DNA of 21,239 nt from a candidate division WOR-3 bacterium. Lineage in GTDB: Bacteria > Hydrothermota > Tepidihabitantia > B3-TA06. The translations under genes and the position numbers were made by a program. The stretch spans positions 1-21,239 of the forward strand of contig CBFGKC010000026.1 of the NCBI GenBank assembly GCA_965649265.1, read 5' to 3'. Under the pieces are notes generated by a model, which had not been told where the DNA came from, made no database searches, and saw only the letters and a list, made by a program, of their open reading frames with translations. Position 1 is the first letter of the stretch, and every line of letters starts with the position of its first letter. Shown here piece by piece: positions 823-19,389 of this stretch.

Positions 823-1923
823 TCAAATAGAACCAAGGATGTCTGGAGGAGGTGACTGCGTGAATAAATTCCTGGGCAGGGCGATTCCGAAGTCGTCTAA
901 AATCCCTGCGAATTTTGTCTTGATCGCGGACGACATCCCGGAGGGCGCTATTTTCTCGAGGGTGTTCCACATGTGGGCTATGGCGTTTTCCGAATCTATT
1001 TTCAAATCGATTATCGAGCCGTTTGCAATCTGAAAAACGGTCGTGAACTCCTCAGGTTTTTCCAGTTTCTCAAGAAGTGTGACGTGAAGAGGAGGAGCTT
1101 CCTCCTCAAGGTAATCCAGAAGTCGGTTGAGCGCCATTATTACAATATCCTTAAGTGGTTTTTGCTTGTGTATGATCTCCATGCCTACCTCCAGCTGCGA
1201 GATTCTTGCAAGGAAATCCTCCACGTATCGACCTGCGATGATGTCTCCGTGCTGGGGAGCAATAACTTCCGGGATCGGGTCTAGGTTCGTTATTCTGTCC
1301 ACCGTGTCCCTCAGCGCCTGCCGGAGCGGCATGTAAATCTGGTGGAAGAACTCGATTCCTGAGAAAGAAGATTCATCGGCATGTATTCCCGGACCCTTTC
1401 TCGACGTGACGCCTGCAAGGAAATCGCCGGAGAAGAGCGTTCTGCTCTCATAGTCATAAAACATCATTGCGCCGCGGAAATGGCAGAAGTAGGCCGGGAC
1501 GAACTGCACCCTGTGGCCCGTTTTCTTTATCTCGAGCGTCTGGGAGTGCTGGGATTCTATCGCAAAGAGATTGCGTTCGGGGATGCCGAGCATTTTTATG
1601 AGCCTCAAGGTATCAATCGACGAGACCACCACCGCGTGGGGCGCATTGGCGAGTATCACGTGAATGTTGGAGGCCACATCCGGGTCCTGGTGGCTTAAGA
1701 AAACGATATCGACGTTCTGCAGGCCGCCCGCGAGCTTCTCGAGGGCGGATGCGAGAAGAGACGTGTCGAGCTTGGTGCCCGGATCGAAAAGCATGTTAAC
1801 ACGGTTGTTTCCGGAGATGAATCTCTTTAGATAAATATTGCGGTGCAGGTCGGGTTCAGGGGTGCGAATGAGATAGAATTCGTTAGCTATCTCGAAAAAA
1901 TCATGTTTCTCCTCAGATGGCAT
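823..1923 (-). CDS. MBL-fold di-iron protein, ODP (oxygen-binding di-iron protein)/FprA-like, with extra ~115-aa C-terminal domain
   Basis: Motifs DPG, SHQDPD, CHFRG, FSGD, FHQIYMP, APQHG. ATG 1921-1923 follows AGGAG (preferred over GTG at 1929). No flavodoxin domain. Confidence 0.8.
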   Translation of the reverse strand: MPSEEKHDFFEIANEFYLIRTPEPDLHRNIYLKRFISGNNRVNMLFDPGTKLDTSLLASALEKLAGGLQNVDIVFLSHQDPDVASNIHVILANAPHAVVVSSIDTLRLIKMLGIPERNLFAIESQHSQTLEIKKTGHRVQFVPAYFCHFRGAMMFYDYESRTLFSGDFLAGVTSRKGPGIHADESSFSGIEFFHQIYMPLRQALRDTVDRITNLDPIPEVIAPQHGDIIAGRYVEDFLARISQLEVGMEIIHKQKPLKDIVIMALNRLLDYLEEEAPPLHVTLLEKLEKPEEFTTVFQIANGSIIDLKIDSENAIAHMWNTLEKIAPSGMSSAIKTKFAGILDDFGIALPRNLFTQSPPPDILGSI

Positions 1924-1973
1924 CTTCACTCCTGTAGTTTGATTCGCTGGGAACTACCTATATAGAAATAACC

Positions 1974-2438
1974 CTAGTTCTCGGTAAGGATGTGCTCGTC
2001 GTACTGGAGCTCAAAATAGAGCTTGTGCTTGGCTTCTTCCTGGGCAAGACCGAGGAGAAGCTCTTCGAGTTCCTTGTTGTCCGTGATTGCGGCGAGATCG
2101 GTATAGAGCTTGAAGGAAGCCTTCTCTCTTTGCATGGCGACTATGAGGGCTTTCTGGTAATCGAATATTGCGTTCTCGTCGACATCCGCTTTTGCCAGGT
2201 AGTCTGCAATCTTCAAACTCTGTACTTTTGCGCCGGCAGAAATCATTATCTTGCCTTGCTTGACCGCCTCAAGTTTCGCCTTGTGTTTTTGCTCCTCCTT
2301 GGCAAAGCTCGCGAACAGTTCCTTCATTGAAGTGTTGTCCATGCGGCCTGCAAGATCGGTGTAAAAGATACTCGCTTCCTCTTCCTTGCTTATTGCAAAA
2401 TCAAGTAGTTCGTTTACCGAACCGAAAGTATCATTCAC
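1974..2438 (-). CDS. Rubrerythrin-like ferritin-family protein (no rubredoxin domain)
   Basis: Duplicated E..FY..LA...EExxH helices (KEEQKH, QEEAKH); GTG start after GGAGG. Confidence 0.9.
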   Translation of the reverse strand: MNDTFGSVNELLDFAISKEEEASIFYTDLAGRMDNTSMKELFASFAKEEQKHKAKLEAVKQGKIMISAGAKVQSLKIADYLAKADVDENAIFDYQKALIVAMQREKASFKLYTDLAAITDNKELEELLLGLAQEEAKHKLYFELQYDEHILTEN

Positions 2439-2498
2439 GTATCCTCCTTTGGCTTCTATACTTTTTCTAAAATCCAGGCTCCTATGCTCGGATTGTAA

Positions 2499-2526
2499 AT
2501 TATAGAGTATTAAGCGCTGCGGTCAA
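2499..2526 (-). promoter_or_regulatory. sigma70-like promoter TTGACC-N16-TATAAT
   Basis: Upstream of ferritin-like gene (likely ferritin-ODP operon). Confidence 0.7.
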
Positions 2527-2569
2527 GCTGTTCAATTGTAATAAACCCGAACCCTCTTGGGCCGCAGTA

Positions 2570-2734
2570 TTACCAGATGCAATCGAGCAAGGCCCTTTTC
2601 CAGTCGTTTCCTGTCTCTTTCGTGACGTCCGCCGCAGAGTTAGGATCGCCAGGTTTTGTGTATTTACGCATTCTATCTTCCAGAGCTAAATCGTCGAGAA
2701 TGTCCTCGCAGTTTTTCCTGTCGAACTTTTCCAT
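2570..2734 (-). CDS. Small hypothetical protein, 54 aa (MEKFDRKNCEDILDDLALEDRMRKYTKPGDPNSAADVTKETGNDWKRALLDCIW)
   Basis: Below ORF-track cutoff. AGGAG RBS overlaps the tpx stop codon (TAGGAGtttgaaATG); fills the gap between tpx and the next promoter. Confidence 0.7.
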   Translation of the reverse strand: MEKFDRKNCEDILDDLALEDRMRKYTKPGDPNSAADVTKETGNDWKRALLDCIW

Positions 2735-2743
2735 TTCAAACTC

Positions 2744-3265
2744 CTATTGGTTTGCGAGTTCTTTAACAGCCTTGAGTGCGGCTTCATAATCCGGATGTTC
2801 GCCCACCTCCTTTACGATCTCGGAGTAGCGAATTACGCCCTCTTTATCGACCACGAAGATGGACCTTGCCAAAAGTCTTGTCTCATGCATCAGGACCCCG
2901 TAGGAAGTCCCGAACGAGGCGTATTTGTGATCGGAGAAAACCTTTACCTTATCTATCCCCTGTGCGCCGCACCATCGTTTTTGCGCGAAGGGGAGGTCCA
3001 TACTTACGGTCAATATGACTACATCCGTACCTAATCCGGCGGCTTCTTCGTTGAAGCGATGGGTCTGAAGGTCGCAGATGGATGTATCCAGTGAGGTGAC
3101 CACTGAGATCAGTCTTATCTTGCCCACGAACTCCGACGAATGAACCTCGGCAAAATCGTTTCCGATTACGGTAAAATCGGGTGCATTGTCTCCATTTTTT
3201 ACCTCGCTGCCGACAAGTGTGACCGGATTGCCTCCCATTGTCACTAGTCCTTTTCTTTCGTTCAT
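2744..3265 (-). CDS. tpx: Thiol peroxidase (atypical 2-Cys peroxiredoxin)
   Basis: APDF, SLDTSICDLQT..FN, SMDLPFAQKRWC, LARSIFVVD, HPDYEAAL motifs. Confidence 0.95.
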   Translation of the reverse strand: MNERKGLVTMGGNPVTLVGSEVKNGDNAPDFTVIGNDFAEVHSSEFVGKIRLISVVTSLDTSICDLQTHRFNEEAAGLGTDVVILTVSMDLPFAQKRWCGAQGIDKVKVFSDHKYASFGTSYGVLMHETRLLARSIFVVDKEGVIRYSEIVKEVGEHPDYEAALKAVKELANQ

Positions 3266-3431: not shown

Positions 3432-4697
3432 ATGTATTCTCCAACGTTTAGCTCAAAGCCTAAGGTGCTTATCACTACAACTTATGTAAAAAACAAGCGC
3501 GATTTCTTTGACACGTTTGCAGTAAATACCCCTTACCGGCCAAGGCTCAGCTATCCCAGCCGTTCGTATTCTTCCGCGTTAAGGTTTCTCAAGATCAATG
3601 TTCCGGACGTTGAAATTCTTGAATACCCCTACTGGCAATCATATATCAAGAAACTGCGTGAGGGCTGGGATGTAGTGGGTTTCAGTTTCTTTCACTTTGA
3701 ACTCGACCGCATACTTGCGATGGCTGAAGAAGCAAGGCGTCATGGTATACGCGAGCTCTGGGCCGGCGGCTACGGTGCGCTTTCGCCCCAGTCTGAATTC
3801 GCGGACAAGTGCTGGACCGGTTACTGCGAGGAGAGGCTTTCAAGTGAGGTGTTCGGAACAAACGTCGAAAGGCTCAGGCATCCGTCTCTGGCAGGCTCGT
3901 TAAGGCTTGATCTGCCTCCGTTCTTCAGGATAGCAAAACTGGCAGGCCTTTACACGTCCCGTGGATGTCCTTATCGCTGTACCTTTTGCCAGGCACCCCT
4001 TTATGCACCAAGACCTTCCCGAATCCCTCTCGAAAGCATTGAAGAAGTCCTCAACCAATACGCGAGCCTTGGTGTCAAGCTGATAGGAATTCACGACGAG
4101 ACGTTCGGAATCTTTCAACCGCACTCCGAAAGGGTCGTGGAGATGATGCGTTCCCGGGGTATGCGGTGGTCTGTGGCATCCCGGGTCGACATGGCGCTCA
4201 AGAATCTGGACTACTGGGCTGATGCCGGTCTTACAACGCTGGGGTTCGGTGTCGAGACACTGCGGGGAAGCTCTCTTGCAAAAATCAAAAAGGGGCTGGA
4301 TACGGACTTGCTCCCCGAACTCGCGCGGCGAGCGAGGGGGAGGGGGGTACTCACGACCGCATACTACATGATAGGCTGCGAGGACGACACCGTTGATTCG
4401 ATCGCCGAGGACCTTCTCGAACTTCGCAACATGGGATTCGACTCGCATCAACTTACCATCAACACACCCTTTCCTGGAACCCTTCAATGGGACTACATAG
4501 GTTCGACCTTCGGTCTTATCGATTCGAACCCTGCCCATTACGACACTCGTCACCTGGTCTGGAAACACCCCCACATCGGTCCGTTAGAGATGCATTACCT
4601 CCTTACCGAAGGCTGCGCATTCCTCAATCGTCCGCTATCCAGCTACATTCCCGGCATCTTGCGGATGATGAAAAGTTACCCCAGATCCCCTGATTGA
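3432..4697 (+). CDS. Radical SAM protein with B12-binding-like N-terminal domain
   Basis: TSRGCPYRCTFC (CxxxCxxC), DETF, GVET, TPFPGT, and N-terminal DVVGFS...WAGG. ATG 3432 after AAGGA chosen over TTG 3378. Confidence 0.88.
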   Translation: MYSPTFSSKPKVLITTTYVKNKRDFFDTFAVNTPYRPRLSYPSRSYSSALRFLKINVPDVEILEYPYWQSYIKKLREGWDVVGFSFFHFELDRILAMAEEARRHGIRELWAGGYGALSPQSEFADKCWTGYCEERLSSEVFGTNVERLRHPSLAGSLRLDLPPFFRIAKLAGLYTSRGCPYRCTFCQAPLYAPRPSRIPLESIEEVLNQYASLGVKLIGIHDETFGIFQPHSERVVEMMRSRGMRWSVASRVDMALKNLDYWADAGLTTLGFGVETLRGSSLAKIKKGLDTDLLPELARRARGRGVLTTAYYMIGCEDDTVDSIAEDLLELRNMGFDSHQLTINTPFPGTLQWDYIGSTFGLIDSNPAHYDTRHLVWKHPHIGPLEMHYLLTEGCAFLNRPLSSYIPGILRMMKSYPRSPD

Positions 4698-4721
4698 CAA
4701 AAACCAACCAGGGCGTAAATT
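4694..4721 (+). promoter_or_regulatory. sigma70-like promoter TTGACA-N16-TAAATT (HNH)
   Basis: Overlaps radical SAM stop; weaker -10. Confidence 0.5.
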
Positions 4722-4743
4722 ATCTAATCAAGGAGGAGGAAGA

Positions 4744-5283
4744 ATGCCGCCTAAAGCAGTCAAGACCGTCAGGGACCTGATTTTCTGGCGTTACGCCAGG
4801 TTGATTGCCCGTTCAGCAGGCATGGACGAGCAATTCGGCTTCATCATGAAAACGTTCAAGGATCTGCAAACCGGAAAGAAACACTGGTCGTCCGTGCTTC
4901 GCGAGGACAGCTTGATGATTCACGAGAACGGGCATTGCGTCTACTGCGGAGCAACCGAAGGGCTTACATGGGACCACATCATTCCACGTAAAATAAAAGC
5001 CCCGCACGGATGCAACGTTCACGAAATCCACAACGTCGTCGAATGCTGCAAAAGCTGCAACAGTTCAAAGGGAGGCCGCGACGTATTCTCGTGGTTTGGA
5101 AAGGAAAGAAGAAACGAGGTTCCCAGGCTCGTGGAGGGGAAACTTCTTAAACTTTTGTACGAATGCCACTCTTGCCGGGGGACGCTTGAGAGCGCCGACC
5201 TCGACTCGAGCGGCGAGCTTGACATACTCGATCTGGGTTGGATATTCCACGAACCGTGCCCGTCTCGAAAGGTCTGCGAGTGA
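4744..5283 (+). CDS. HNH endonuclease (Zn-binding, McrA-like core)
   Basis: CVYCG...TWDHIIP...N...CKSCNSSKG; strong GGAGG RBS. Confidence 0.9.
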   Translation: MPPKAVKTVRDLIFWRYARLIARSAGMDEQFGFIMKTFKDLQTGKKHWSSVLREDSLMIHENGHCVYCGATEGLTWDHIIPRKIKAPHGCNVHEIHNVVECCKSCNSSKGGRDVFSWFGKERRNEVPRLVEGKLLKLLYECHSCRGTLESADLDSSGELDILDLGWIFHEPCPSRKVCE

Positions 5284-5414
5284 CCACAGATCAGACTTCT
5301 TAAATGTAGAGAGGAGAGGGGTAAAAGATTCCAGCTTCTTAATTGACCGGCATCATCATCCCCTGTTCTTAATATTGAATTATTTAAAACAAGGCATAAA
5401 AACTCTTTTATCTA

Positions 5415-5442
5415 TTGACATCTTTAAAAAGTACTATATAAT
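5415..5442 (+). promoter_or_regulatory. sigma70-like promoter TTGACA-N16-TATAAT (deaminase 1)
   Basis: Perfect hexamers with AT-rich upstream tract. Confidence 0.75.
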
Positions 5443-5512
5443 TCAACCCTTGCGTAAAAAAGCTTTTTTGGGAAGTTTTTTCGCAAGAACAAAATCCCAA
5501 CGAGGAGGAAAG

Positions 5513-6364
5513 ATGCCCAAAACAAAAGAAATCAAATCACTCATTCCGGCTTTCATCGCGTCAATCATTCTTGCGGCCGTCTTTTTTATTCCTGGTTCCG
5601 CAGAGGCTGCTAAAGGCGACGTTCCCAACTGGGATTCTCTCCGGGCGGTATTTACCGCGAGGGCTACCGGATGGAACATGACGCCGGCAATAGAGAAGGA
5701 TCTGATATACTCTCTTCTGGCCTATTCAGTGGTTTTCAAAAACTGGCAGGTCAGCAAGGATACCGGTCGCGGATACAACATCGGCTCTGTGCTTGTCAAT
5801 CCGAGCGGAACCGTCATTTACTGGGCAACCAATTGCGTGAACGTGACAGGCAATATGACCCAGCACGGCGAGGTCCGGTTGATGAATTGTTATCTGGCCT
5901 CGACAAAGAAGAAGGACTTGAAGAACCATATCATCTACACGACACTCGAACCCTGTGCTCAGTGCGCGGGGATGATGAAGCTGACCAGCATCTACCGTAC
6001 CATCTACGGGCAGACCGACCCCGGTTACGGAAAGGCTCACGAAAGGCTCGATTTGAACTCGTACGTATGGAACCCTGACAGCGGCTACACTCCTTATCCC
6101 CGTCACGTCATCTCCGATACCCTTGCCGCTTTCGAACGCTGGTATTTAGACGAAATCTACCAGATATATCTTGACACTTGCAAGGATTCGAGCATAACCA
6201 AATTCCTGACAAGCAAGGGTGCGTATGATGCCTATGCTTATTATCTGAAAGAATTCCTGAATTATCAGGTCAAGTATCAGGAAAACTACATGACCTGGAA
6301 GCAGGCAAGAATTTACTATGATTCTGTGCCGGATCATTACGTCCAGTTGTGCCCGCCTGAATAA
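5513..6364 (+). CDS. Zn-dependent nucleoside deaminase (TadA/GuaD-like) with N-terminal signal peptide, paralog 1
   Basis: QHGE, YTTLEPCAQC, YGQTDPG. ATG 5513 follows GAGGAGG. N-terminus MPKTKEIKSLIPAFIASIILAAVFFIPGSAEA has basic, hydrophobic and AxA regions. Confidence 0.88.
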   Translation: MPKTKEIKSLIPAFIASIILAAVFFIPGSAEAAKGDVPNWDSLRAVFTARATGWNMTPAIEKDLIYSLLAYSVVFKNWQVSKDTGRGYNIGSVLVNPSGTVIYWATNCVNVTGNMTQHGEVRLMNCYLASTKKKDLKNHIIYTTLEPCAQCAGMMKLTSIYRTIYGQTDPGYGKAHERLDLNSYVWNPDSGYTPYPRHVISDTLAAFERWYLDEIYQIYLDTCKDSSITKFLTSKGAYDAYAYYLKEFLNYQVKYQENYMTWKQARIYYDSVPDHYVQLCPPE

Positions 6365-6469
6365 ATCGGCTTAGGTTTCAAGGACTCTTTTTTAGAGGAT
6401 TCCTGAGGAGTGCGTAACAATCATTTTGCGAAGTTTCCAGCAGAATGAGTCTAGCATTAAGGAGGACGA

Positions 6470-7315
6470 ATGTCCAATAACAGTAAGAGAAACATTTGGG
6501 GACCAGGTTGTATCGTTTCAATCATTATCGGTGCCATATATATTATGCCGGTTGTCGGCCGGAGTGCCGACGTTGGTACTCCAAACCTGGACTCTCTATA
6601 TGCTGCTTATTCCGCTAAAAAGATTCAGGTCAGCCCCGCTCAGGAGAGGGACAGAATCTTTTCTCTCCTTGCTTATGCCGTTGTGCTTAAAAACTGGCAA
6701 GTCAGTTCTGACACCGGACGTGGTTACAACATAGGTTCAGTCCTGGTGGATTCCAACAATAAAGTCATTTACTGGGCTCGAAACTGCGTAAACGTAACCA
6801 GGAATTCCACACAACACGGCGAAGTTCGCCTCATGAATTGTTACATGGCTACTGCGAGGACAAGGAATTTAAAAGGGCATACGATTTATACAACGCTTGA
6901 GCCCTGCGCGCAGTGTGCCGGGATGATGAAGCTCGCAAGCGTTCGACGTACCGTTTACGGGCAGATTGACCCTGGATTCGGAAAAGCTCACGAAAGACTC
7001 GATTTGAATTCATACGCATGGAAGCCTGACAGCGGTTATACACCTTATCCCCGCCACGTCATTTCGGACACCCTTGCCGCTGCTGAATGCTGGTACATGG
7101 ACTATCTCTACAAGGCATATCTTGACACTTGCAAGGATTCAAGCATAACCAGGTTTCTTTCAAGCGCCGGTGCCTACGATGCCTACACCAAGTTCCTTGA
7201 TTTCTTTTTAAAATACCCGGTACAATACCAGGAGAATTACGCTATCTGGAAGCAAGCGAGAATCTATTATGATTCGGTTCCGGATCATTACGTTCAAATG
7301 TGTCCGCCTGAATGA
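6470..7315 (+). CDS. Zn-dependent nucleoside deaminase (TadA/GuaD-like) with signal peptide/membrane anchor, paralog 2
   Basis: Same QHGE/PCAQC motifs, colinear with paralog 1; hydrophobic N-terminus CIVSIIIGAIYIMPVV; AAGGAGG RBS. Confidence 0.88.
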   Translation: MSNNSKRNIWGPGCIVSIIIGAIYIMPVVGRSADVGTPNLDSLYAAYSAKKIQVSPAQERDRIFSLLAYAVVLKNWQVSSDTGRGYNIGSVLVDSNNKVIYWARNCVNVTRNSTQHGEVRLMNCYMATARTRNLKGHTIYTTLEPCAQCAGMMKLASVRRTVYGQIDPGFGKAHERLDLNSYAWKPDSGYTPYPRHVISDTLAAAECWYMDYLYKAYLDTCKDSSITRFLSSAGAYDAYTKFLDFFLKYPVQYQENYAIWKQARIYYDSVPDHYVQMCPPE

Positions 7316-7368
7316 AGGCGGACGAAAGCTTCTCTAGAACGTCAACAATCATTTATCGGCACTCCATG

Positions 7369-7395
7369 AAAAAAGGGGCGCGAAGCGCCCCTTTC
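7369..7395 (-). terminator. Intrinsic terminator between convergent genes (possibly bidirectional)
   Basis: GGGGCGC-gaa-GCGCCCC stem flanked by A6 and T3; U6 tail on minus strand. Confidence 0.85.
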
Positions 7396-7415
7396 AATCT
7401 TAATTCATCAATCAA

Positions 7416-7625
7416 TTAATGACCGCAGCTGCAGCCCTTGTGGTGATGTTCTTCTTCTTCGTCATCATCCTTTTCGTGGCAGGGACAGTCGCATTCCTTG
7501 CCGGGTTCGTGGTACTGGAAGCAGCCGCAGTCGTCGTCTTCGTGGCACTCGCACTCGCAGGCCTCGTCTTCCTTGTGATGTTCGTAGCATTCGCAGTCTT
7601 CGTTGTGATGCTTGTGTTTTGACAT
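7416..7625 (-). CDS. Cys/His/acidic-rich metallothionein-like small protein
   Basis: 69 aa with 12 Cys, 12 His, 24 Asp/Glu; GGAGG RBS; followed by terminator; downstream of rubrerythrin. Confidence 0.8.
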   Translation of the reverse strand: MSKHKHHNEDCECYEHHKEDEACECECHEDDDCGCFQYHEPGKECDCPCHEKDDDEEEEHHHKGCSCGH

Positions 7626-7668
7626 AAAGTCCTCCTAAATTCGGTTTATGATTTTCGATTTTCTGGGT

Positions 7669-7699
7669 CCCCAAAAGGGGACGCAGTACCCTTTTGGGG
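7669..7699. repeat. Inverted repeat/hairpin between rubrerythrin and the Cys/His peptide gene
   Basis: CCCCAAAAGGG-N9-CCCTTTTGGGG; no U-tract on the coding (minus) strand. Confidence 0.7.
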
Positions 7700-7702
7700 T
7701 AA

Positions 7703-8281
7703 TTACCAATTTTCTCCCAGAAGCTCGAAGTATGCCCTGGGATGTGCGCAGGCCGGGCATTGTTCGGGCGCTTCCTTGCCTTCGTGCAGATAGCCGCAGT
7801 TGCGGCAGCGCCAGACAACAGGCTCGGGCCTCTTGAAAACGCGGTCCTCCTCGACATTCTTCAAGAGATCGCGGTAGCGCTTCTCATGCTGCTTCTCGGC
7901 CACCGAAACCATCTCGAAAAGCCTGGCCACGGCCTCGAAGCCTTCCTCGCGGGCGACCTTGGCATAGTTCGGATACATCTGGGTCCACTCGAAATGCTCG
8001 CCGCCTGCGGCCTCCTTGAGGTTCTCGGCGGTCTTGCCTATTACTCCTGCCGGGAACTTCCACTGTACCTCAACCTCGCCGCCTTCGAGGAAACTGAAGA
8101 ATCGTTTTGCATGTTCCTTCTCCTGGTCCGCGGTCTCGGCAAAGATGGCTGAAATCTGCTCGAAACCTTCCTTCTTTGCCTGACCGGCAAAGTAAGTATA
8201 GCGATTGCGGGCTTGCGATTCGCCTGCAAAAGCGGTCAAGAGATTACGTTCCGTCTTGGTTCCTTTTATGCTTTTTGCCAC
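7703..8281 (-). CDS. rbr: Rubrerythrin
   Basis: AFAGESQARNRY, EKEHA, EKQHE, C-terminal rubredoxin WRCRNCG...CPACAHP. Confidence 0.97.
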   Translation of the reverse strand: MAKSIKGTKTERNLLTAFAGESQARNRYTYFAGQAKKEGFEQISAIFAETADQEKEHAKRFFSFLEGGEVEVQWKFPAGVIGKTAENLKEAAGGEHFEWTQMYPNYAKVAREEGFEAVARLFEMVSVAEKQHEKRYRDLLKNVEEDRVFKRPEPVVWRCRNCGYLHEGKEAPEQCPACAHPRAYFELLGENW

Positions 8282-8360
8282 ACTATACTCCTTTTTTTAT
8301 TTTCCAAACTTTACACAATTTTCTGAATGTTTCAACGCCCGGTCCCGGAACCGTTCCCAA

Positions 8361-8804
8361 TCAACCCTTCAGATATTTCTCGTACGCGTTCTGAATACTT
8401 GCCTTGTGTTCAAGCTCTTCAGCCGCCAGGCTCTCGAACGTTCGTTTGAGCGTGCCGTCATCGACAATCTGGGCCAGGTCGGAATAAAGCTTGTTGGAGC
8501 TTTGTTCTCTTTCCAGCGCAACGAGCATTGCGTTTTCGACAGCCAGGGATTTAGAACCTTCCTTTGTCAGAAGCACCTTATCCAGTTCCAAGTTCTTTAT
8601 CCTGGGATGGGAACCTATTTCAACATTCCCTTTCCGCATCTCGATTATGACTATTTTGTGCCGAATCTCCTGTCTGGCAAGTTCCGTAAAAAGTTCTTTC
8701 ATGCCTGGATCGTGCATCCTTTCGGCAAGGTCAGTATAAAAATCGCAAGCATCCTGCTCCTTCTCTCTTGCAAAGTCCAGTACGTCTTCAATAGAATTAA
8801 ACAT
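8361..8804 (-). CDS. Rubrerythrin-like ferritin-family protein (paralog of 1974..2438)
   Basis: LDFAREKE..FYTDLA...QEIRH...ERE..LYSDLA...EELEH; start ATG 8804 or TTG 8807. Confidence 0.88.
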   Translation of the reverse strand: MFNSIEDVLDFAREKEQDACDFYTDLAERMHDPGMKELFTELARQEIRHKIVIIEMRKGNVEIGSHPRIKNLELDKVLLTKEGSKSLAVENAMLVALEREQSSNKLYSDLAQIVDDGTLKRTFESLAAEELEHKASIQNAYEKYLKG

Positions 8805-8836
8805 CAAGGGTTTCCTCCAAAGATTCTTGCACCTCT

Positions 8837-8864
8837 ATAATAGTTTACGAAGTGCCTGTGTCAA
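8837..8864 (-). promoter_or_regulatory. sigma70-like promoter TTGACA-N16-TATTAT
   Basis: Upstream of ferritin-like/rbr/Cys-His run. Confidence 0.65.
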
Positions 8865-8921
8865 GGAACTTAACGCAAGAGTTCAATTTTTAGAAACTTA
8901 TATCCGCCAGAAGGACTTAAA

Positions 8922-9779
8922 CTAGTTCCTGAGTCTGCATTCATTCAAAAAACCTTCCATGTCGGTGTCATCCCTTATGCCGAGCCTGGTCAGGACGAAA
9001 TCGTACTTTACCGGGTCCTGCGGCACTATTTCCCTGAACGCCGACGTAATTTCCAGCGCGGTCTTGAGGTTTGCCTGCTTGCGATTCGTAATCCCCAGAG
9101 CGATTCCGATGCGGTGCATGTGAAGGTCCACTGGTACTATAAGCTTAGAGGGGGGGATCCCCTGCCATCCGCCCGGGTCGACCGCATCCTTGCGAACCAT
9201 CCACCTTAAAAATAAGTGCAGCCTTTTTGAAGCGCCGCCCTTCTCCGGATACGGCAGAAGGTGCTCGAACCCTTTCCCGTAACACCCGTAACACCCGTTA
9301 CCTCCTTCTCTCCCTTTTTCTTTTTCCAATGCGCGGCCTCTTATCTTCGAGGTAAATTTGATTAACGCCGGAAGTACCATCTTATCCTCCTTGCTGTATC
9401 CATCCATGAATCCGGCCTCGAGTGAGCCGAAATCCTCAATCGTTCTCTTTAGTCCCCAGAGCATAAGGCTGAAGTCTTCTCCAGTGGCGAATCGGTGTTT
9501 GAATTCTTTGAAGACTCGTCGCATGTCTTTAAAATCGCTCGACTTGAGAAACTCGAGGGGCGAGGGCTGCATCAGATCGAGCACCCTTTTTACGCTCGCA
9601 AGTATCTGTTTGACGCCTCCGTAAGCCAGCGAGGAGGCGATAATCCCTACAAGCTCGCGCTTCCGAAGATCCGGGTAATCGTACAAAAACTGTAAGGGGT
9701 CAGGGTTCACGTACTCCCTTTTCGAGTAGCAGGCATAGAGCGCCTCAAGTTGTTTTGTTATATCTTTTAATGAACGCAC
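8922..9779 (-). CDS. TIGR02757 / DUF2400 family protein
   Basis: DPLQF, LAYG, KRLHLFLRWMVRKDAVDPGGW, VPVDLH, DPVKYDF. GTG 9777-9779 after AAGGAG; the longer ORF would overlap the divergent gene's promoter. Confidence 0.9.
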   Translation of the reverse strand: MRSLKDITKQLEALYACYSKREYVNPDPLQFLYDYPDLRKRELVGIIASSLAYGGVKQILASVKRVLDLMQPSPLEFLKSSDFKDMRRVFKEFKHRFATGEDFSLMLWGLKRTIEDFGSLEAGFMDGYSKEDKMVLPALIKFTSKIRGRALEKEKGREGGNGCYGCYGKGFEHLLPYPEKGGASKRLHLFLRWMVRKDAVDPGGWQGIPPSKLIVPVDLHMHRIGIALGITNRKQANLKTALEITSAFREIVPQDPVKYDFVLTRLGIRDDTDMEGFLNECRLRN

Positions 9780-9801
9780 GTTGCTCCTTGCATTGAACCA
9801 T

Positions 9802-9829
9802 ACTATAGGAATCTCCAGGTTGGTGTCAA
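9802..9829 (-). promoter_or_regulatory. sigma70-like promoter TTGACA-N16-TATAGT
   Basis: Upstream of TIGR02757 gene; back-to-back with plus-strand -35. Confidence 0.65.
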
Positions 9830-9833
9830 GCTG

Positions 9834-9861
9834 TTGACAATCGAGGCAACGTATGTACACT
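9834..9861 (+). promoter_or_regulatory. sigma70-like promoter TTGACA-N16-TACACT
   Basis: Upstream of RibD_C gene. Confidence 0.65.
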
Positions 9862-9894
9862 TCAGGTTTGAATCTCAATCAACAAAGGAGGAAG

Positions 9895-10590
9895 ATGAAG
9901 CCGAAGGTAATCTTGCACAATGCGGTGAGTGTTGACGGTCGTATGGATCACCTTTCCATCGACATGGGGCTTTTCTACAGCCTTGCCTCGAAATGGAAGG
10001 AGGACGCCACACTTGTCGGTTCGAACACGATGCTGAGCGCAGCCTCCAACGTTGCCCCTGAGGAAGAAACCACATTCGAGCCGCCTCGGATCGATCCAAA
10101 GGACAGGCGACCCCTGCTCGTCGTACCCGACTCAAGAGGCCGCATCAGGTTTTGGCATGCGGCGAGGGCGTGGGGTTACTGGCGCGACCTTGTCGTTCTT
10201 GCGAGCGAAGCGACTCCGCAGAAATATCTCAAGTATCTCGAAAAACGCCATGTCCGCTATATCGTTGCAGGTGATAAAAAGGTTGATCTCCGCAAAGCCC
10301 TCGAAGTCCTTTCCAGACGCTTTGGGGTCAAGACCGTGCGGGTGGATTCGGGCGGAACCCTGAACGGAGCGCTTCTACGCTCAGGCCTTGTGGACGAGGT
10401 GAACGTCTTCATAACACCGACCCTTGTGGGCGGAACATCCGCGCGTTCGCTATTTATAGCTCCTGACCTGGAATCCGCAAAAGGTATCGTCAAGCTCGAC
10501 CTCATCAAGACCAAGAAGCTCGCGGGCAACATCTTGTGGTTACGCTACGATGTGGTCAAAAAGAAACGCGGGTCAGAGGGCGACAAATAA
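9895..10590 (+). CDS. Stand-alone RibD C-terminal (pyrimidine reductase/DHFR-fold) protein, archaeal Rib7/ArfC-like
   Basis: SVDGR, DATLVGSNT, PDSRGR, VDSGGTLNGALL..GLVDE..ITPTLVGG; ATG 9895 after AAGGAGG. Confidence 0.85.
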   Translation: MKPKVILHNAVSVDGRMDHLSIDMGLFYSLASKWKEDATLVGSNTMLSAASNVAPEEETTFEPPRIDPKDRRPLLVVPDSRGRIRFWHAARAWGYWRDLVVLASEATPQKYLKYLEKRHVRYIVAGDKKVDLRKALEVLSRRFGVKTVRVDSGGTLNGALLRSGLVDEVNVFITPTLVGGTSARSLFIAPDLESAKGIVKLDLIKTKKLAGNILWLRYDVVKKKRGSEGDK

Positions 10591-13416: not shown

Positions 13417-13809
13417 ATGGAGGTAAAAATGCTTACGATTTTAACGCTTGTGATTCTTAGCCTTGGTTGGGGTGCCGCGGATCGGAGTTCTGTAGGGGAT
13501 TCGGGTGAGATGGAAGCAAAAGTTGCGGGTCAGTTCAATGGGGGTGGGGGAGCGGAGGCGCTGAACCCGAACTTCGTCCAGGTCGGAGACCGGATTCAAC
13601 GCGGCGTACTTTCTTTAAGTCTTTTATACTCTTTCGGGGAGGTGGTGAGGGTCGAAATGTTCGACGTCCTTGGCCGAAGGGTGCACTCGGGAGTCATTAC
13701 CGGGCCAAAGCTCGGAATTGACGTTTCCGCTTTCCCTGCGGGGGTCTATTTCCTGTGGGTGAGAATGGGCTCAAAGCTGCAAGCGAACCGCAAGGTGGTT
13801 ATCAGGTAA
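13417..13809 (+). CDS. Small secreted protein consisting almost only of a T9SS type A-like sorting domain
   Basis: Signal peptide, ~30-aa Gly-rich linker, then FDVLGRRV...AGVYFL...RKVVIR; start may be ATG 13429. Confidence 0.75.
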   Translation: MEVKMLTILTLVILSLGWGAADRSSVGDSGEMEAKVAGQFNGGGGAEALNPNFVQVGDRIQRGVLSLSLLYSFGEVVRVEMFDVLGRRVHSGVITGPKLGIDVSAFPAGVYFLWVRMGSKLQANRKVVIR

Positions 13810-13833
13810 ACAATCTTTAATTAAGGAGGAGAG

Positions 13834-15363
13834 ATGGTTCAACTAATCCTTACCCTTTTCGGGTTCTATGGGGTAATCTCAAACGACACAACCTGGTCCG
13901 ATACCGTCTTCCTGACGGGCGACGTGCTCGTTGAGCCCGGCGTAACCCTTACCATTGCGCCGGGAACGGTCGTCCTCTATGCCGATACATGCGAGTGGGA
14001 TACGGCGTGGTATGTGGAAGGAGAAAATTATCCTGAGACTTTAGAGGGTTCAAAAGATATTGTCGCAGAAGGTAACGTGAAAATTCTTGGAACCATTGAA
14101 GATTCGATATATTTCCTTCCTGTCGACAGTATGAAAAGAATCTCAGGCAACATAATTATGTCAAACAGCACGGATTCTCTGTTCTTTGTTTCATTCGATT
14201 TGGACCCGGATTACTTTACTGTTTCTGCATATCACTCGGAATTAACTATGGCGAGTTGTCGATTTGAGCATTGGAACGGAATTGAAGGGTTTGAATCAGA
14301 TATTTCTTTATTTGATTGCATGTTCTATGACAATAGATCCAATTGTGTATCCGCCTATAAAGGGAAACTTAGAATTGAAGATTGCGACTTCAGTGGATCC
14401 AGTGATATTTCTATAGTTTCCTATTTTGAAAATTATCCTTCTTTGTATCCATTTGGTTCGATTGTTTACGGAGAAAATCTGGAGTGTGGCATTATTAAAG
14501 GGAGCAGAATATACGATGCATTTGGGTATTCCCCTTTTGTTTTATATAGCGGCCTGAATTGTGCAGGTTGTGGTTTCTTTAATTGTGAGCAAGTGGAAGT
14601 TTCAAATTGTGCTTTTGATGATATAAGGGGTGGAAGCGGAGGAAATGAGTCAATGGGTGCTTCCCCTGGGAATGGGGGGGATGGTCTTGGGATATGCATT
14701 ATTGAGTGTAAAGAAACATTAATAGCCAAAAACGAAATTGCAAACATAGCTGGAGGGAGAGGTGGTATAGGGCAATTCGAAGATGGACTTAGTGGCAGTT
14801 CAAGGTCTTTTTTATGCTATAACTCCAAGCCAGTCATAGTCAATAACGAGTTCAACAGCGAAGGCACTTACATCTACATCGATTCTTTATCCCACCCAGT
14901 TATTGGCGGCGCGCCGGGAGCGGGCAACCACTTTCTTAAAGCAGGTAATAGACGTTACGTCATCCATAACGACTCGCCTTATGACATTGATGCCACCTGG
15001 AACTTCTGGGAGTGCGAACCGTTCTTAATCGATTCCTTAATCTACGACCACTACGATAACCCTTCAAAAGGCGTCGTGCATTACGACCATGCGACCGGAA
15101 TCGAAGAGGAGGAGGTTGCGCCGTCGCCTGAATCTTTTTCAATCGCTTCAACAGTTGTCCGCGAAGTTCTTTACATCTCTCTTCCGAAGGGGGGAGGCCC
15201 CTCGATAGTCGAACTCTACGATTCTTCGGGTCGCAGGGTCATGACGAAAAGTGTCAGTCAAACGAATGCCGGCATCGATGTTTCCTGGCTGCCAAAGGGG
15301 ATATATTTTGTCAAGCTTGTCCCTGAAGAACGAGCCAATAGATTCAAAATTCTGATTATCTGA
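13834..15363 (+). CDS. Secreted right-handed parallel beta-helix protein with T9SS-like CTD
   Basis: DTTWS...GDVLV..GVTLTI.PG, repeated I.xC.F..N rungs, IDATWNFW, GIEEE linker, YDSSGRRV...GIYFVKL. Confidence 0.8.
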   Translation: MVQLILTLFGFYGVISNDTTWSDTVFLTGDVLVEPGVTLTIAPGTVVLYADTCEWDTAWYVEGENYPETLEGSKDIVAEGNVKILGTIEDSIYFLPVDSMKRISGNIIMSNSTDSLFFVSFDLDPDYFTVSAYHSELTMASCRFEHWNGIEGFESDISLFDCMFYDNRSNCVSAYKGKLRIEDCDFSGSSDISIVSYFENYPSLYPFGSIVYGENLECGIIKGSRIYDAFGYSPFVLYSGLNCAGCGFFNCEQVEVSNCAFDDIRGGSGGNESMGASPGNGGDGLGICIIECKETLIAKNEIANIAGGRGGIGQFEDGLSGSSRSFLCYNSKPVIVNNEFNSEGTYIYIDSLSHPVIGGAPGAGNHFLKAGNRRYVIHNDSPYDIDATWNFWECEPFLIDSLIYDHYDNPSKGVVHYDHATGIEEEEVAPSPESFSIASTVVREVLYISLPKGGGPSIVELYDSSGRRVMTKSVSQTNAGIDVSWLPKGIYFVKLVPEERANRFKILII

Positions 15364-15374
15364 TCAGTTTAAAC

Positions 15375-15402
15375 TTGACTTTTCCTGCTGAAGTCTTATT
15401 AT
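15375..15402 (+). promoter_or_regulatory. sigma70-like promoter TTGACT-N16-TATTAT
   Basis: Upstream of methyltransferase gene. Confidence 0.6.
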
Positions 15403-15412
15403 TCCTTCAGTT

Positions 15413-16099
15413 ATGAGAATGGAGGTTGATATCTCAAACAGCAAGACTCAACAATACTGGGATAATCGCGCTTCAAGATATGAAAAAATATACAGCGGTG
15501 CAGGGAAAGGCTTCGGTCGGTTGTTTGACATTATATTCAGGGGCGCTTTTCGAAAAAGGATCGAAATCACTTACAAACTATTGGGAAATCTTGAGGGAAA
15601 AGAAGTCCTGGACGCCGGATGCGGTCCCGGGTTCTTTCTTCTCGAGGCTGTCCGGAATGGCGCGGCTAAGGTCACGGGAATAGATTTCTCGTCAGAAATG
15701 ATGAATATTGCATATTCGACAATGAGGACTAAATATCCAGGCGGGGAGAACTGGGAGCTTAAAAATATCGATCTGGAGAAATTCGTGCCGGCCAACTCCT
15801 TTGATATCGCATTGATAATAGGTGTTCTTGAATATCTTGAATCTCCCCTGGATATACTTAAGAGTATGCGAGGATTCGTAAGAGATAGTATGATAGTCTC
15901 CTTTTCTCGTAAGAACTCATTGTACAGCATGCTGAGATTTTATTTGCTTGGAATCAAGAAGATCAAAATCACTTTAAACTCATTACAGGAAATTGAATTG
16001 CTTGCGAGAGAAGCCGGTTTCAGGGTGATCGAGGCTCACCGTATCGGGCCTAGTTTTCTTGTTATGTTGAAGCCCGTTGCAGAGAAACCGGATGCCTGA
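15413..16099 (+). CDS. Class I SAM-dependent methyltransferase
   Basis: VLDAGCGPG motif I, GIDFS, FD....GVLEY. Confidence 0.9.
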   Translation: MRMEVDISNSKTQQYWDNRASRYEKIYSGAGKGFGRLFDIIFRGAFRKRIEITYKLLGNLEGKEVLDAGCGPGFFLLEAVRNGAAKVTGIDFSSEMMNIAYSTMRTKYPGGENWELKNIDLEKFVPANSFDIALIIGVLEYLESPLDILKSMRGFVRDSMIVSFSRKNSLYSMLRFYLLGIKKIKITLNSLQEIELLAREAGFRVIEAHRIGPSFLVMLKPVAEKPDA

Positions 16100-17432
16100 A
16101 CTGCTGCTGGTCAGACCCGGGTTCTCAAATCCCATGGATGCTCATTGGAGCACGGAACCTCCGCTAGGGTTGGCTTACCTTGCTGCCTCGGCTCGAATGA
16201 AAGGGCTGGGTGTTGCAATAATTGACGGCAAGCTTGAAAAGCACCGAAACACACATTTAACCGCAGAAAGAATTCTTTCTTTTGAGCCCAGTTTTGTAGG
16301 CATCTCTGCCATGACTCGCGAATACCCGGACGCGATTGAAATTGCAAGGGAATTAAAGTCCGCCCGGCCGCATCTTGTAACAATCCTCGGCGGAGTCCAT
16401 GCCAATGCTCTGCCTGAAGAATCACTTCGGGAATCGAATGCTTTTGATTTTGTAATGACAGGTGAATGTGAGGATTCGCTCGTTTCTTTAATTAAGACCT
16501 TGAAGAACAATGAATCATTTGTATCAATTCCCGGTCTTTTTTGGAGAACAAACGCGGGGAAAATCAAACGCGGGCCTCCTCCATCTTTCGCTGATCTTTC
16601 AACCATGCCGTATCCTGCATGGGATTTATTCCCCTTGAGAAAGACATATGTCATGTTGACCGAGCGCGGATGTCCTTACACTTGTGTTTTTTGCAGCCAC
16701 AATACGGGAAGAATTATTCGATCTCGTTCGCTGGATAGCGTAAAAGGGGAAATCGAGTGGCTTTACAAGGATTTTAAACCTCGCGAGATATACATCGAAG
16801 ATGAAACCTTCGGGATAAATCCTTTACGCACAAGAGAATTATTAAGCTGGCTTGCCGATTTTAATAAGGACAAAGGCATTGTTTTCAAGGCGCAGACCAG
16901 AATAGATAAAGTTTCCGAGGGTTTGATGACTATGATGAAGAAAGCCGGTTTCGAATATGTTGAGCTTGGTGTGGAATCGGGAGACGACGGTGTGCTAAAG
17001 AAATCGTCAAAAGGAATCACCGTCGCAAAGATCAAGGAAGCCGTGGCAATAATCAAGCAAGCCGGTCTTAAGACGTGGTTGAATTTCATTATAGGGCTCC
17101 CGGGTGAAAGTGAGAGTTCAATCAGAAATACGATGGATCTTGCGGCAAGAATGAATCCTGACTGGCTTTCGGTCGCTCTCATCGTACCTTATCCCGGATG
17201 CAAGATATACGAATGGGCACGAAAAAGCGAAAACGGATACGATCTCATTTCTGACAACTGGTCAAAATTCGACAAATACCTAGGAAAGGAATCCGTGAGG
17301 ATCCAGGGGTTGAGTTTTTCACGAATGAAACAACTCCAGATCAAGATGTATCTGAATACATTCATAAAGAATTTGAGATTAGGGAAACTTGCGAAACTTC
17401 TCTGGGAAAGCAGGAGTTTAATCACTTCTTGA
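16092..17432 (+). CDS. B12-binding domain radical SAM protein (class B methylase-like)
   Basis: PPLGLAYLAA, ILGGVH, GECE, ERGCPYTCVFC, GVESG, GLPGE, PYPG; ATG 16092 overlaps upstream stop (ATGCCTGA). Confidence 0.92.
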   Translation: MPELLLVRPGFSNPMDAHWSTEPPLGLAYLAASARMKGLGVAIIDGKLEKHRNTHLTAERILSFEPSFVGISAMTREYPDAIEIARELKSARPHLVTILGGVHANALPEESLRESNAFDFVMTGECEDSLVSLIKTLKNNESFVSIPGLFWRTNAGKIKRGPPPSFADLSTMPYPAWDLFPLRKTYVMLTERGCPYTCVFCSHNTGRIIRSRSLDSVKGEIEWLYKDFKPREIYIEDETFGINPLRTRELLSWLADFNKDKGIVFKAQTRIDKVSEGLMTMMKKAGFEYVELGVESGDDGVLKKSSKGITVAKIKEAVAIIKQAGLKTWLNFIIGLPGESESSIRNTMDLAARMNPDWLSVALIVPYPGCKIYEWARKSENGYDLISDNWSKFDKYLGKESVRIQGLSFSRMKQLQIKMYLNTFIKNLRLGKLAKLLWESRSLITS

Positions 17433-17737
17433 GTGTGTCTTAAGCATCTTGAATCAAAGAAAACGTTTCTTTCGTCCGCGGATGCATAAGAAGATCAACA
17501 AACTATTCGCTTTTTTATGGGAATGCCTTGAGTATCATCCGGGGAGTCGATCCACAAGGGGGAGGGGGGAACCACCCATCCTTTTGATGCTTTCGGTCGA
17601 GAAGCTCAAGCCGGGCGCGCTTTCGTGAGAACGACAATATCGGATGTTTCCGGTTTTCTCGACACAGTTCGCTTAATATCACCTCTGTCAGTTTGGAAAA
17701 GCAGAACGCCCGAGTTAATTTTCAAACAAGGACCGGC

Positions 17738-17765
17738 TTGACGGGTGTTATTCCTTACATACAAT
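17738..17765 (+). promoter_or_regulatory. sigma70-like promoter TTGACG-N16-TACAAT
   Basis: Upstream of 17796 gene. Confidence 0.65.
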
Positions 17766-17795
17766 ATTACAGTAATCAAAAATCCGGAGGAAAAA

Positions 17796-19304: not shown

Positions 19305-19330
19305 TATTCATTTGTTGCTCGATTCTTGTC

Positions 19331-19358
19331 TTGACAACTCATCAATACTCCGTATTCT
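19331..19358 (+). promoter_or_regulatory. sigma70-like promoter TTGACA-N16-TATTCT
   Basis: Upstream of 19390 gene. Confidence 0.65.
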
Positions 19359-19389
19359 TACTTCAAAGCTCTCAAATCATGGAGGAGCA

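Follow-up and report, generated by a model that had tools for sequence, protein, structure and literature searches.

We analysed a 21,239-nucleotide stretch of DNA from a candidate division WOR-3 bacterium (contig CBFGKC010000026.1, forward strand; this whole stretch is called the window hereafter), which carries on its plus strand a tandem pair of genes encoding TadA-like zinc deaminases with hydrophobic N-termini that are predicted to direct the proteins out of the cytoplasm. The two open reading frames (ORFs) lie precisely where an earlier note on this DNA had put them. The following features were assigned to the pair and its immediate surroundings:

5513..6364, plus strand: deaminase copy 1 (P0001, 283 amino acids), stop codon included; ORF matching Pfam dCMP_cyt_deam_1 (E 5.1e-13)
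6470..7315, plus strand: deaminase copy 2 (P0002, 281 amino acids), stop codon included; ORF matching Pfam dCMP_cyt_deam_1 (E 2.3e-15)
5415..5442, plus strand: predicted sigma-70-type promoter 5' of copy 1 (TTGACA, 16 nt, TATAAT); 12 of 12 hexamer positions match, by consensus only
5502..5509, plus strand: ribosome-binding site of copy 1, GAGGAGGA, read from the sequence and ending 3 nt 5' of the ATG at 5513
6460..6466, plus strand: ribosome-binding site of copy 2, AGGAGGA, read from the sequence
5513..5608, plus strand: signal peptide of copy 1 (residues 1-32), its n-, h- and c-regions read from the sequence, with predicted cleavage at AEA|A
6470..6559, plus strand: hydrophobic N-terminus of copy 2 (residues 1-30), read from the sequence; signal peptide or uncleaved signal anchor
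5864..5965, plus strand: zinc/catalytic core of copy 1 (H118, E120, C148, C151); invariant alignment columns that align with the TadA active-site motifs
6815..6916, plus strand: zinc/catalytic core of copy 2 (H116, E118, C146, C149), from sequence and alignment
6035..6361, plus strand: C-terminal extension of copy 1 (residues 175-283) with GYxPYPR and terminal CPPE; no Pfam match, AlphaFold2 predicted local distance difference test (pLDDT) mostly above 85
7375..7391, no strand assigned: G+C-rich hairpin GGGGCGC-GAA-GCGCCCC separating copy 2 from a small convergent gene, read from the sequence; likely shared terminator
4698..7370, no strand assigned: segment with an HNH gene and both deaminases that has no counterpart at the syntenic site of a same-genus genome (G001), from genome comparison

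The proteins are 69% identical to each other (188 of 272 residues in BLASTP, E 5e-148), matching the roughly 70% that had been estimated by eye for their mature parts, and each carries complete zinc motifs, H118-G-E120 and P147-C148-A-Q-C151 in copy 1 and H116/E118 with C146/C149 in copy 2, so that the HGE and PCAQC motifs proposed in the earlier note are present in both. The N-termini are hydrophobic and dissimilar, as it had also claimed: copy 1 begins with K3, K5 and K8 followed by the core LIPAFIASIILAAVFFI and PGSAEA|A, which reads as an AxA cleavage site, and copy 2 with K6 and R7 followed by GCIVSIIIGAIYIMPVVG and a weaker possible site at VVG|R. At the other end, the two proteins share the announced aromatic-rich extension of about 109 residues, in which Tyr, Phe and Trp make up 20% (22 of 109 in each copy) and which ends in CPPE and has no Pfam match. 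One proposal failed, namely that D-S/T-hydrophobic motifs link the pair to the other exported proteins of the window. They are not enriched above background, with three per protein (about 10.6 per 1000 residues) vs. 4.8 in 17 other ORFs of the window, several of which reach 7-12.

Only 105 bp separate the two genes, and a consensus scan called no plus-strand terminator between them; the same scan missed the hairpin at 7375-7391. The best explanation for this arrangement is a small operon reading promoter, copy 1, copy 2 and terminator, as suggested by the consensus signals. An Rfam scan of 5200-7800 returned two small RNA matches, both sub-threshold (E 0.38 and 0.66), and a hairpin in the predicted 5' untranslated region (5449-5487, -17.1 kcal/mol) was discarded, since with a z of only -1.0 it cannot be distinguished from shuffled sequences. 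No RNA data set is among the 14 sequencing-run entries listed, all of which show small shares.

Both copies belong to the cytidine/deoxycytidylate deaminase superfamily, scoring 49.2 (copy 1) and 56.7 bits (copy 2) against Pfam PF00383, above its gathering cut-off of 25. Against the NCBIfam TadA model NF008113 they reach 29.8 and 39.3 bits, in the core only, far below the equivalog cut-off of 150. The Bd3614-deam model PF14439 gives 32.2 bits for both copies, which is below its gathering cut-off of 38.5, and the MafB19-deam model PF14437 gives 33.4 and 45.4 bits, which is above its cut-off of 27; canonical TadA proteins match the latter model as well, so this match is not specific. TadA proteins are cytoplasmic, free of signal sequences and about 150-170 residues long, whereas the window proteins have 283 and 281 residues and hydrophobic N-termini. 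A canonical TadA of 164 residues, scoring 113 bits against PF00383 and lacking a hydrophobic N-terminus, is encoded elsewhere in the same genome (contig C6; the genome comprises 2.74 Mb in 27 contigs and is 96% complete), together with three further cytoplasmic-type PF00383 genes, i.e. a RibD-type deaminase and two other cytoplasmic deaminases. Judged by these comparisons, the pair is not a tRNA deaminase but represents a TadA-derived family, and its placement apart from characterised cytoplasmic clades, on which the earlier note had made its interpretation depend, is upheld. Databases label family members "nucleoside deaminase" or, by transfer, "tRNA(adenine34) deaminase", and the ESM Atlas holds only generic "nucleoside deaminase" clusters; we found no description of an exported or lipoprotein TadA-like family in the portions of the literature covered by our search, so that the family appears annotated generically in databases and uncharacterised in those portions.

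The structural comparisons lead to the same branch of the superfamily. An AlphaFold2 model built from a 30-sequence alignment (mean pLDDT 84, predicted template modelling score 0.80) had TadA structures as its top Foldseek matches (1wwr, E 6.5e-8), and an independent structure search returned Staphylococcus aureus TadA (Z 13.8), ABE8e TadA (13.4), Arabidopsis guanosine deaminase (12.9), ADAT3 (12.6) and Msmeg3575 (ammeline; 12.2), all covering model residues of about 60-237, as well as yeast cytosine deaminase (11.2) and the NE0047-type structure 2g84 (10.3). The toxin deaminases SsdA (9c63, Z 4.0) and DddB (9k3e, Z 3.6) are structurally remote. A profile search of the PDB matched TadA 2b3j (E 2.3e-14) over the core alone (profile positions 80-164). 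According to the model, the proteins belong to the TadA/guanine/cytosine deaminase branch, to which they add an N-terminal helix, a beta insertion and extra C-terminal helices. H118, E120, C148 and C151 are invariant in the family alignment, as are E61, D63, W78 and Q79 of the added N-terminal helix and G191, Y192, P194, Y195, P196 and R197 (GYxPYPR) of the extension, which probably shapes the substrate pocket. Conservation of at least 85% among 118 homologs marks 73 columns, and both copies keep 68 of them.

Beyond the zinc ligands, the four cysteines that the earlier note regarded as shared are indeed common to both copies, but across the family they are only partly conserved. Among 122 aligned proteins, which include both window copies and two near-identical orthologs (P0003, P0004), Cys occupies the position of C108 in 67, of C126 in 22 and of C280 in 28, and the cysteine of the DTC motif is found in no other homolog at the aligned position. 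C126 covaries with a C-terminal cysteine, which is present in all 22 proteins with Cys126 vs. 30 of the 100 without it, half of these 30 having a Cys in the mature N-terminal linker instead; the counts are inflated by the relatedness of the sequences. A disulfide between C126 and C280 probably staples the tail to the domain, and the cysteine pattern supports an oxidising compartment as the predicted location. With a median of 6.6 and values from 4.3 to 9.6, the isoelectric point calculated for this domain across the family is uninformative on nucleic-acid binding.

Evidence for export comes from the family as a whole. Restricting a heuristic of our own to the sequence upstream of the conserved domain, we classified 118 homologs (P0005-P0122) and obtained 88 with a lipobox-type signal, 28 with another hydrophobic signal, many of them with AxA-type ends, and 2 N-terminally truncated fragments; all 116 signals precede the conserved domain, so that conservation of the signal in homologs, which had been put forward as a check, is found across the family. 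A first, looser classifier, which took in the first 60 residues, responded to an amphipathic helix that the family conserves and called signals in 190 of 489 neighbouring ORFs (39%); it was replaced. The family-wide export pattern is nonetheless unambiguous in the alignment itself. Both window copies are classed by the heuristic as carrying a non-lipoprotein signal or transmembrane segment, in line with Sec export, and both place Lys/Arg residues ahead of the hydrophobic core (N-in, C-out). Copy 2 lacks a good AxA site and may stay anchored; its ortholog P0004 retains the hydrophobic core.

These observations have to be set against the possibility that the starts were mis-called, i.e. that the proteins are cytoplasmic RNA/tRNA-editing or nucleotide deaminases translated from downstream starts and that the hydrophobic N-termini are not part of them. 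An internal Met56 directly ahead of the conserved helix would offer such a start in copy 1, but in copy 2 no Met follows M26 before the conserved domain is reached, and the ATGs 5' of the hydrophobic stretches carry strong ribosome-binding sites; a transcript starting from the perfect sigma-70 consensus at 5415-5442 would have no ATG ahead of that at 5513. The N-terminal 55 codons are themselves under constraint (proportion of nonsynonymous differences, pN, 0.43 below that of synonymous differences, pS, 0.65), export signals recur in 116 of 118 homologs across phyla, and this genome already encodes a TadA, a RibD-type and two other cytoplasmic deaminases. We consider the mis-called-start explanation highly improbable and largely refuted. 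Export of an intact, conserved, TadA-derived deaminase is by contrast very probable on the sequence evidence, and the core proposal of the earlier note, an exported or membrane-anchored family apart from cytoplasmic TadA/GuaD that lacks a toxin scaffold, an immunity gene and a type IX secretion sorting domain, is supported.

The family is broad. A word-indexed search gave 417 proteins at E <= 1e-3 among 998 candidates, of which the best 120 are mostly 250-300 residues long with the extension covered, and an exhaustive HMMER search over representatives at 50% identity recovered 239 clusters at E <= 1e-10, with 89 at E <= 1e-30. When data with one genome per species were scanned, 273 pattern matches were obtained, 256 of which encode a relative. 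Phyla and gene neighbourhoods were surveyed in the best 80 genome loci, 70 of which, other than the window, have a called deaminase ORF. The 80 loci fall into 10 phyla, with 23 in Bacteroidota, 20 in Pseudomonadota, 12 in Thermodesulfobacteriota, 6 in Acidobacteriota, 5 in Verrucomicrobiota, 4 each in Myxococcota, Planctomycetota and Chlorobiota, 1 in Nitrospinota and 1 metagenome-assembled genome labelled Saccharimonadota. Nine of these phyla are Gram-negative, and the label of the tenth is doubtful: the deaminase of this record (L063, labelled Candidatus Saccharibacteria) clusters tightly with those of the alphaproteobacteria Kaistia and Pseudoxanthobacter, and its contig may be mis-binned.

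Within this family, the tandem arrangement is peculiar to the window lineage, and none of the other 70 loci has a second copy in tandem. An 87-row tree with the window genome's own TadA as its root places copy 1 beside P0003, to which it is 97% identical, and copy 2 beside P0004, and it unites these pairs as sisters with SH-aLRT support of 100, which implies a duplication that is older than the split from a close relative, yet specific to this lineage. Copies 1 and 2 differ at a pN of 0.20 vs. a pS of 0.75, with synonymous sites saturated. Judged by tree and substitution pattern, the pair is an old, lineage-specific tandem duplication under purifying selection, the retention of which would most simply be explained by diverged substrate preferences of the two copies. 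A search of 40 relatives, which range from the same genus to the same class and of which 37 have a completeness of 90% or more, brought up no family member at E <= 1e-20. In G001, a genome of the same genus, contig C19 matches the window at 3436-4577 and then at 7371-9752 with about 119 bp in between, and its radical SAM gene is followed directly by a homologous terminator hairpin and the small Cys/His-rich gene; the window segment of about 4698-7370 is thus an insertion or deletion difference. No direct or inverted terminal repeats flank this 2.7-kb segment. The pair is accessory and horizontally acquired.

Several further genes of the window were recorded. The segment absent from G001 also holds a stand-alone 179-residue HNH-motif protein (4744-5283, plus strand) with weak matches to PtuB/PDC-M01B and to the HNH regions of Cas9d/IscB, homologs of which, at about 70-74% DNA identity, occur in two same-family genomes without deaminases. 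On the far side of the terminator hairpin, 7416-7625 (minus strand) encodes a 69-residue protein consisting of little else than His, Cys, Glu and Asp in CxC, HH and ExxC runs. It has no Pfam or NCBIfam match, occupies the same site in the same-genus genome, adjoins a rubrerythrin gene and has the look of a small protein that binds metal in the manner of metallothioneins. A cluster of oxidative-stress genes, of the kind expected in an anaerobe, lies at 823-3265 and 7703-8281 (an ODP-family metallo-beta-lactamase-fold protein, two rubrerythrins and a peroxiredoxin). A DUF2400/TIGR02757 gene (8922-9878, minus strand) is divergent from or overlaps a gene with a RibD C-terminal, pyrimidine reductase-like domain (9853-10590, plus strand); the latter lacks the deaminase half, and we found no link to the exported deaminases. 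Several proteins encoded at 13417-21237 carry type IX secretion C-terminal sorting domains, placing the organism in the Fibrobacteres-Chlorobi-Bacteroidetes (FCB) group of phyla.

Across the family, the gene neighbourhoods show no constant partner. When all ORFs in the 80 loci were clustered by BLAST, 4 was the largest number of loci that any neighbour family reached. The 126 immediate neighbours at the 70 loci, annotated with Pfam, included neither a conserved partner nor a recurrent small "immunity" gene, and no small co-directional ORF lies next to the pair in the window; a toxin scaffold or an immunity gene was not found, as the earlier note had observed for the window. Individual neighbours and fusions are more informative. 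In Ca. Parabeggiatoa (L005), which falls within the window's own 12-row clade (support 99), a gene for a secreted RNase T2 plus acid phosphatase lies 27 bp upstream and co-directional. L063 has a signal-bearing, secreted CD39/GDA1 NTPase gene directly upstream in the same direction, L021 a DHH-DHHA1 gene downstream and L013 a gene for a lamin-tail-domain protein upstream. Three protein clusters join a signal peptide and an S1/P1 nuclease to the deaminase (P0159, E 4.5e-44; P0265; P0266), two proteins join it to a lamin-tail domain (P0237, P0255) and one to a metallo-beta-lactamase fold (P0123). The window genome itself encodes non-specific endonucleases and a 5'-nucleotidase. Transposases, type I restriction, the toxin-antitoxin system ParDE, SocA/Panacea and a KAP NTPase surround other loci. 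The fusions and some of the neighbours, as read from their domain content, point to extracellular processing of nucleic acids or nucleotides.

A further seven proteins fuse the deaminase to a domain resembling ribosome-inactivating proteins (RIPs), which is N-terminal in most and C-terminal in P0133: L057 5131-6663 (Pseudomonas corrugata), L058 5065-6672 (Roseateles), P0152, P0173, P0198, P0203 and P0133, all predicted to be exported. The RIP-like domain scores 24 bits against a Pfam cut-off of 21; its matches listed in the PDB (60 of the 74 at E <= 1) are all RIP A-chains, the best being abrin-A (E 4.4e-4), and it keeps the invariant Tyr, Glu-x-x-Arg-Phe and Trp, which we take to be the RIP catalytic residues. 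Such fusions could be two-headed toxins or could couple adenine release to deamination.

One subclade is linked to STING genes. In 5 of the 70 loci, the deaminase gene has a STING or TIR-STING gene as its immediate neighbour, in the same direction and on one side or the other, and all five fall into a single 7-row subclade (support 91) that is not the clade of the window:

L016, 5881-7323; L022, 2196-4612; L044, 5721-8507; L045, 5833-7886; L049, 4980-6705: STING-linked loci with an adjoining prokaryotic STING, TIR-STING or transmembrane (TM)-STING

L044 is an 8.7-kb Spirosoma contig with a relaxase, Rep3 and ParE, which by this gene content is a small mobilisable plasmid, and on it the deaminase gene is followed by TM-STING and a convergent CD-NTase, a cyclase with a PADLOC match at E 2.6e-159. 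Its deaminase has HSE and no obvious signal, whereas three other STING-linked deaminases keep theirs. Among 401 sampled genomes of the Spirosoma phylum, 12 have STING, and a deaminase within 1.5 kb of it occurs at the seed locus only. The STING link is real for this subclade, but the deaminase is not a general component of STING operons. The window has neither STING nor a CD-NTase nor a PADLOC match, which sets its pair apart from accessory proteins of STING-type cyclic-oligonucleotide-based antiphage signalling (CBASS); PADLOC has no model for the family's proteins, and we found no description of a STING-deaminase pairing in the parts of the literature searched.

Comparison with known systems narrows the options. 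With TadA/ADAT2, their best match in sequence and fold, the window proteins share H-x-E, (T)LEPCxxC(A/S)G, a conserved Asn in strand 2 and the YGxxDP loop, but they fall far below the equivalog cut-off, have HGE instead of HAE, add an export signal, an N-terminal helix, a C-terminal beta insertion and three helices, and coexist with a true TadA in the genome; tRNA, moreover, is unavailable outside the cytoplasm. Plant guanosine deaminase (7dbf), B. subtilis guanine deaminase (1tiy), yeast cytosine deaminase (8i3o) and Msmeg3575 (5xkq) have the same fold (Z 11.2-12.9), and yeast cytosine deaminase also uses HGE. These small-molecule deaminases are the likely working analogy, suggesting a free base or nucleoside as substrate and C-terminal elements that close the pocket, although they are cytoplasmic, about 150-190 residues long and similar in the core only, and none has the GYxPYPR extension. 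UshA, CpdB, RNase I and AphA are periplasmic nucleotide-scavenging enzymes, and ADA2/ADGF are secreted adenosine deaminases of eukaryotes; their folds are unrelated to the window proteins, but the proposed setting, extracytoplasmic breakdown of nucleic-acid-derived compounds, is the same. We know of no characterised periplasmic deaminase of the cytidine-deaminase fold and found none in the literature searched. MafB19, DddA and SsdA-type toxins are exported like the window proteins, which also score above the MafB19-deam cut-off; these toxins form the C-terminal tip of a delivery scaffold next to an immunity gene, whereas the window proteins stand alone at about 280 residues, are conserved rather than hypervariable and resemble SsdA and DddB only weakly in structure. 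Bd3614-like deaminases have been described as a distinct branch of the TadA clade with an N-terminal globular domain, an HAExN motif, no terminal strand 5 and a link to a 23S rRNA methylase (Iyer et al. 2011, PMC3239186, in the passages on this branch). Apart from the sub-threshold Pfam match, none of the Bd3614 features listed there is found in the window proteins, which have HGEVR and an N-terminus composed of a signal peptide and short helices. The same paper classifies the deaminase superfamily and mentions Sec-exported toxin deaminases, and its passages on superfamily classification and exported toxins do not describe a lipoprotein deaminase family.

We propose a model, to which we give about an even chance, according to which both proteins are exported base or nucleoside deaminases that serve scavenging. 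As Sec-exported zinc deaminases, they would place their catalytic domain outside the cytoplasm, copy 1 as a cleaved periplasmic protein and copy 2 either cleaved or signal-anchored, most other family members being predicted lipoproteins. Nucleases and phosphatases at the periplasm or cell surface would release bases, nucleosides and nucleotides from extracellular DNA or RNA, the deaminases would hydrolytically deaminate these, and ammonium together with hypoxanthine, inosine or uracil-type compounds would become available for uptake, with the duplicated copies covering different substrates. Adenine or adenosine as substrate is a guess by analogy, made because of the TadA ancestry and the fusions to RIP-like, adenine-releasing domains. 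Several points weigh against scavenging. The signal-peptide calls are heuristic and flagged many neighbouring ORFs in their looser form; the disulfide derives from covariation among related sequences and not from coordinates; substrate and expression are assigned by inference and by consensus signals, respectively; and the modelled fold does not separate an RNA substrate from a small molecule, TadA, GSDA and Msmeg3575 lying within about 1.6 Z of each other. A nucleic-acid or nucleotide enzyme is the immediate neighbour in only about 6 of the 70 loci, and the informative fusions are mostly in clades other than that of the window. The RIP-like fusions can equally be read as toxins. Finally, the family is patchy, horizontally moved and often located beside mobile or defence genes (STING, type I restriction, toxin-antitoxin, transposases and, in the window, HNH), a distribution more typical of conflict genes than of core metabolism.

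This distribution leads to the main alternative, which we regard as doubtful but worth serious consideration and in which the proteins are weapons or defence accessories. They would be secreted or surface toxins with competitors, predators or incoming DNA as targets, whose RNA or DNA they edit, or else modifiers of nucleotide immune signals; an immunity protein would be dispensable because the enzyme would fold only outside the producer's cytoplasm. This alternative would account for the absence of the family from all 40 relatives, the 2.7-kb indel that holds the pair together with an HNH gene, the STING or TIR-STING adjacency in one subclade, with one case on a mobilisable plasmid with a CD-NTase, the seven fusions to an N-glycosidase-like domain keeping E-x-x-R-F and W, and the restriction, ParDE, SocA/Panacea, KAP NTPase and transposase genes near other loci; TadA, the closest relative in fold, acts on an RNA hairpin loop. 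Sec-exported deaminase toxins without immunity genes are on record (Iyer et al. 2011, PMC3239186, in its passages on exported toxins). A role in conflict fits poorly with about three quarters of the members being predicted lipoproteins, and thus kept on the cell instead of released, with the lack of a delivery scaffold, of a conserved partner and of a PADLOC model for these deaminases, and with the strong purifying selection and the retention of 68 of 73 conserved columns, which are unlike fast-evolving toxin tips. The clade of the window shows no STING link, the survey of the Spirosoma phylum returned a deaminase at its seed locus only, and no match was found at E 1e-15 in 72,556 plasmids (PLSDB) or 50,697 phages (INPHARED). 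It is unlikely that deaminases placed outside the cytoplasm act on nucleic acids or nucleotide messengers instead of free metabolites, with conflict systems reusing the same module, next to STING effectors in one clade and as fusions with a RIP-like N-glycosidase or an S1/P1 nuclease in others, and with the window pair representing two specificities. Such enzymes might be editors of RNA or DNA that is extracellular or on its way in, or might guard cytoplasmic sensors by inactivating cyclic dinucleotides beforehand. We consider it quite unlikely that the substrate is another aminated heterocycle deaminated in the periplasm for detoxification or signalling, such as a toxic base or nucleoside analogue, an antibiotic (as in the case of blasticidin S deaminase), an s-triazine such as ammeline, a pterin or a cytokinin-like signal. 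The structural scores of Msmeg3575, guanosine deaminase, yeast cytosine deaminase and 2g84 nearly match that of TadA, the family-specific invariant residues of the N-terminal helix and the C-terminal extension suggest a purpose-built pocket, and accessory, horizontally moved genes often serve niche detoxification; but such a substrate is suggested by none of the neighbours or fusions, and the partners that recur (nucleases, phosphatases, N-glycosidase, STING) are all nucleic-acid or nucleotide proteins.

Deaminases of this fold are textbook cytoplasmic enzymes of tRNA editing and nucleotide salvage, or the tips of delivered toxins. If the scavenging model is true, a broad and conserved branch of the fold that is almost always exported or lipid-anchored would add a deamination step outside the cytoplasm, a step missing from present accounts of extracellular DNA and RNA as bacterial sources of nitrogen and purines. 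The links to STING, RIP-like domains and nucleases make the family a candidate player in microbial conflict, and as a pool of compact TadA-like enzymes it would be relevant to base-editor engineering.

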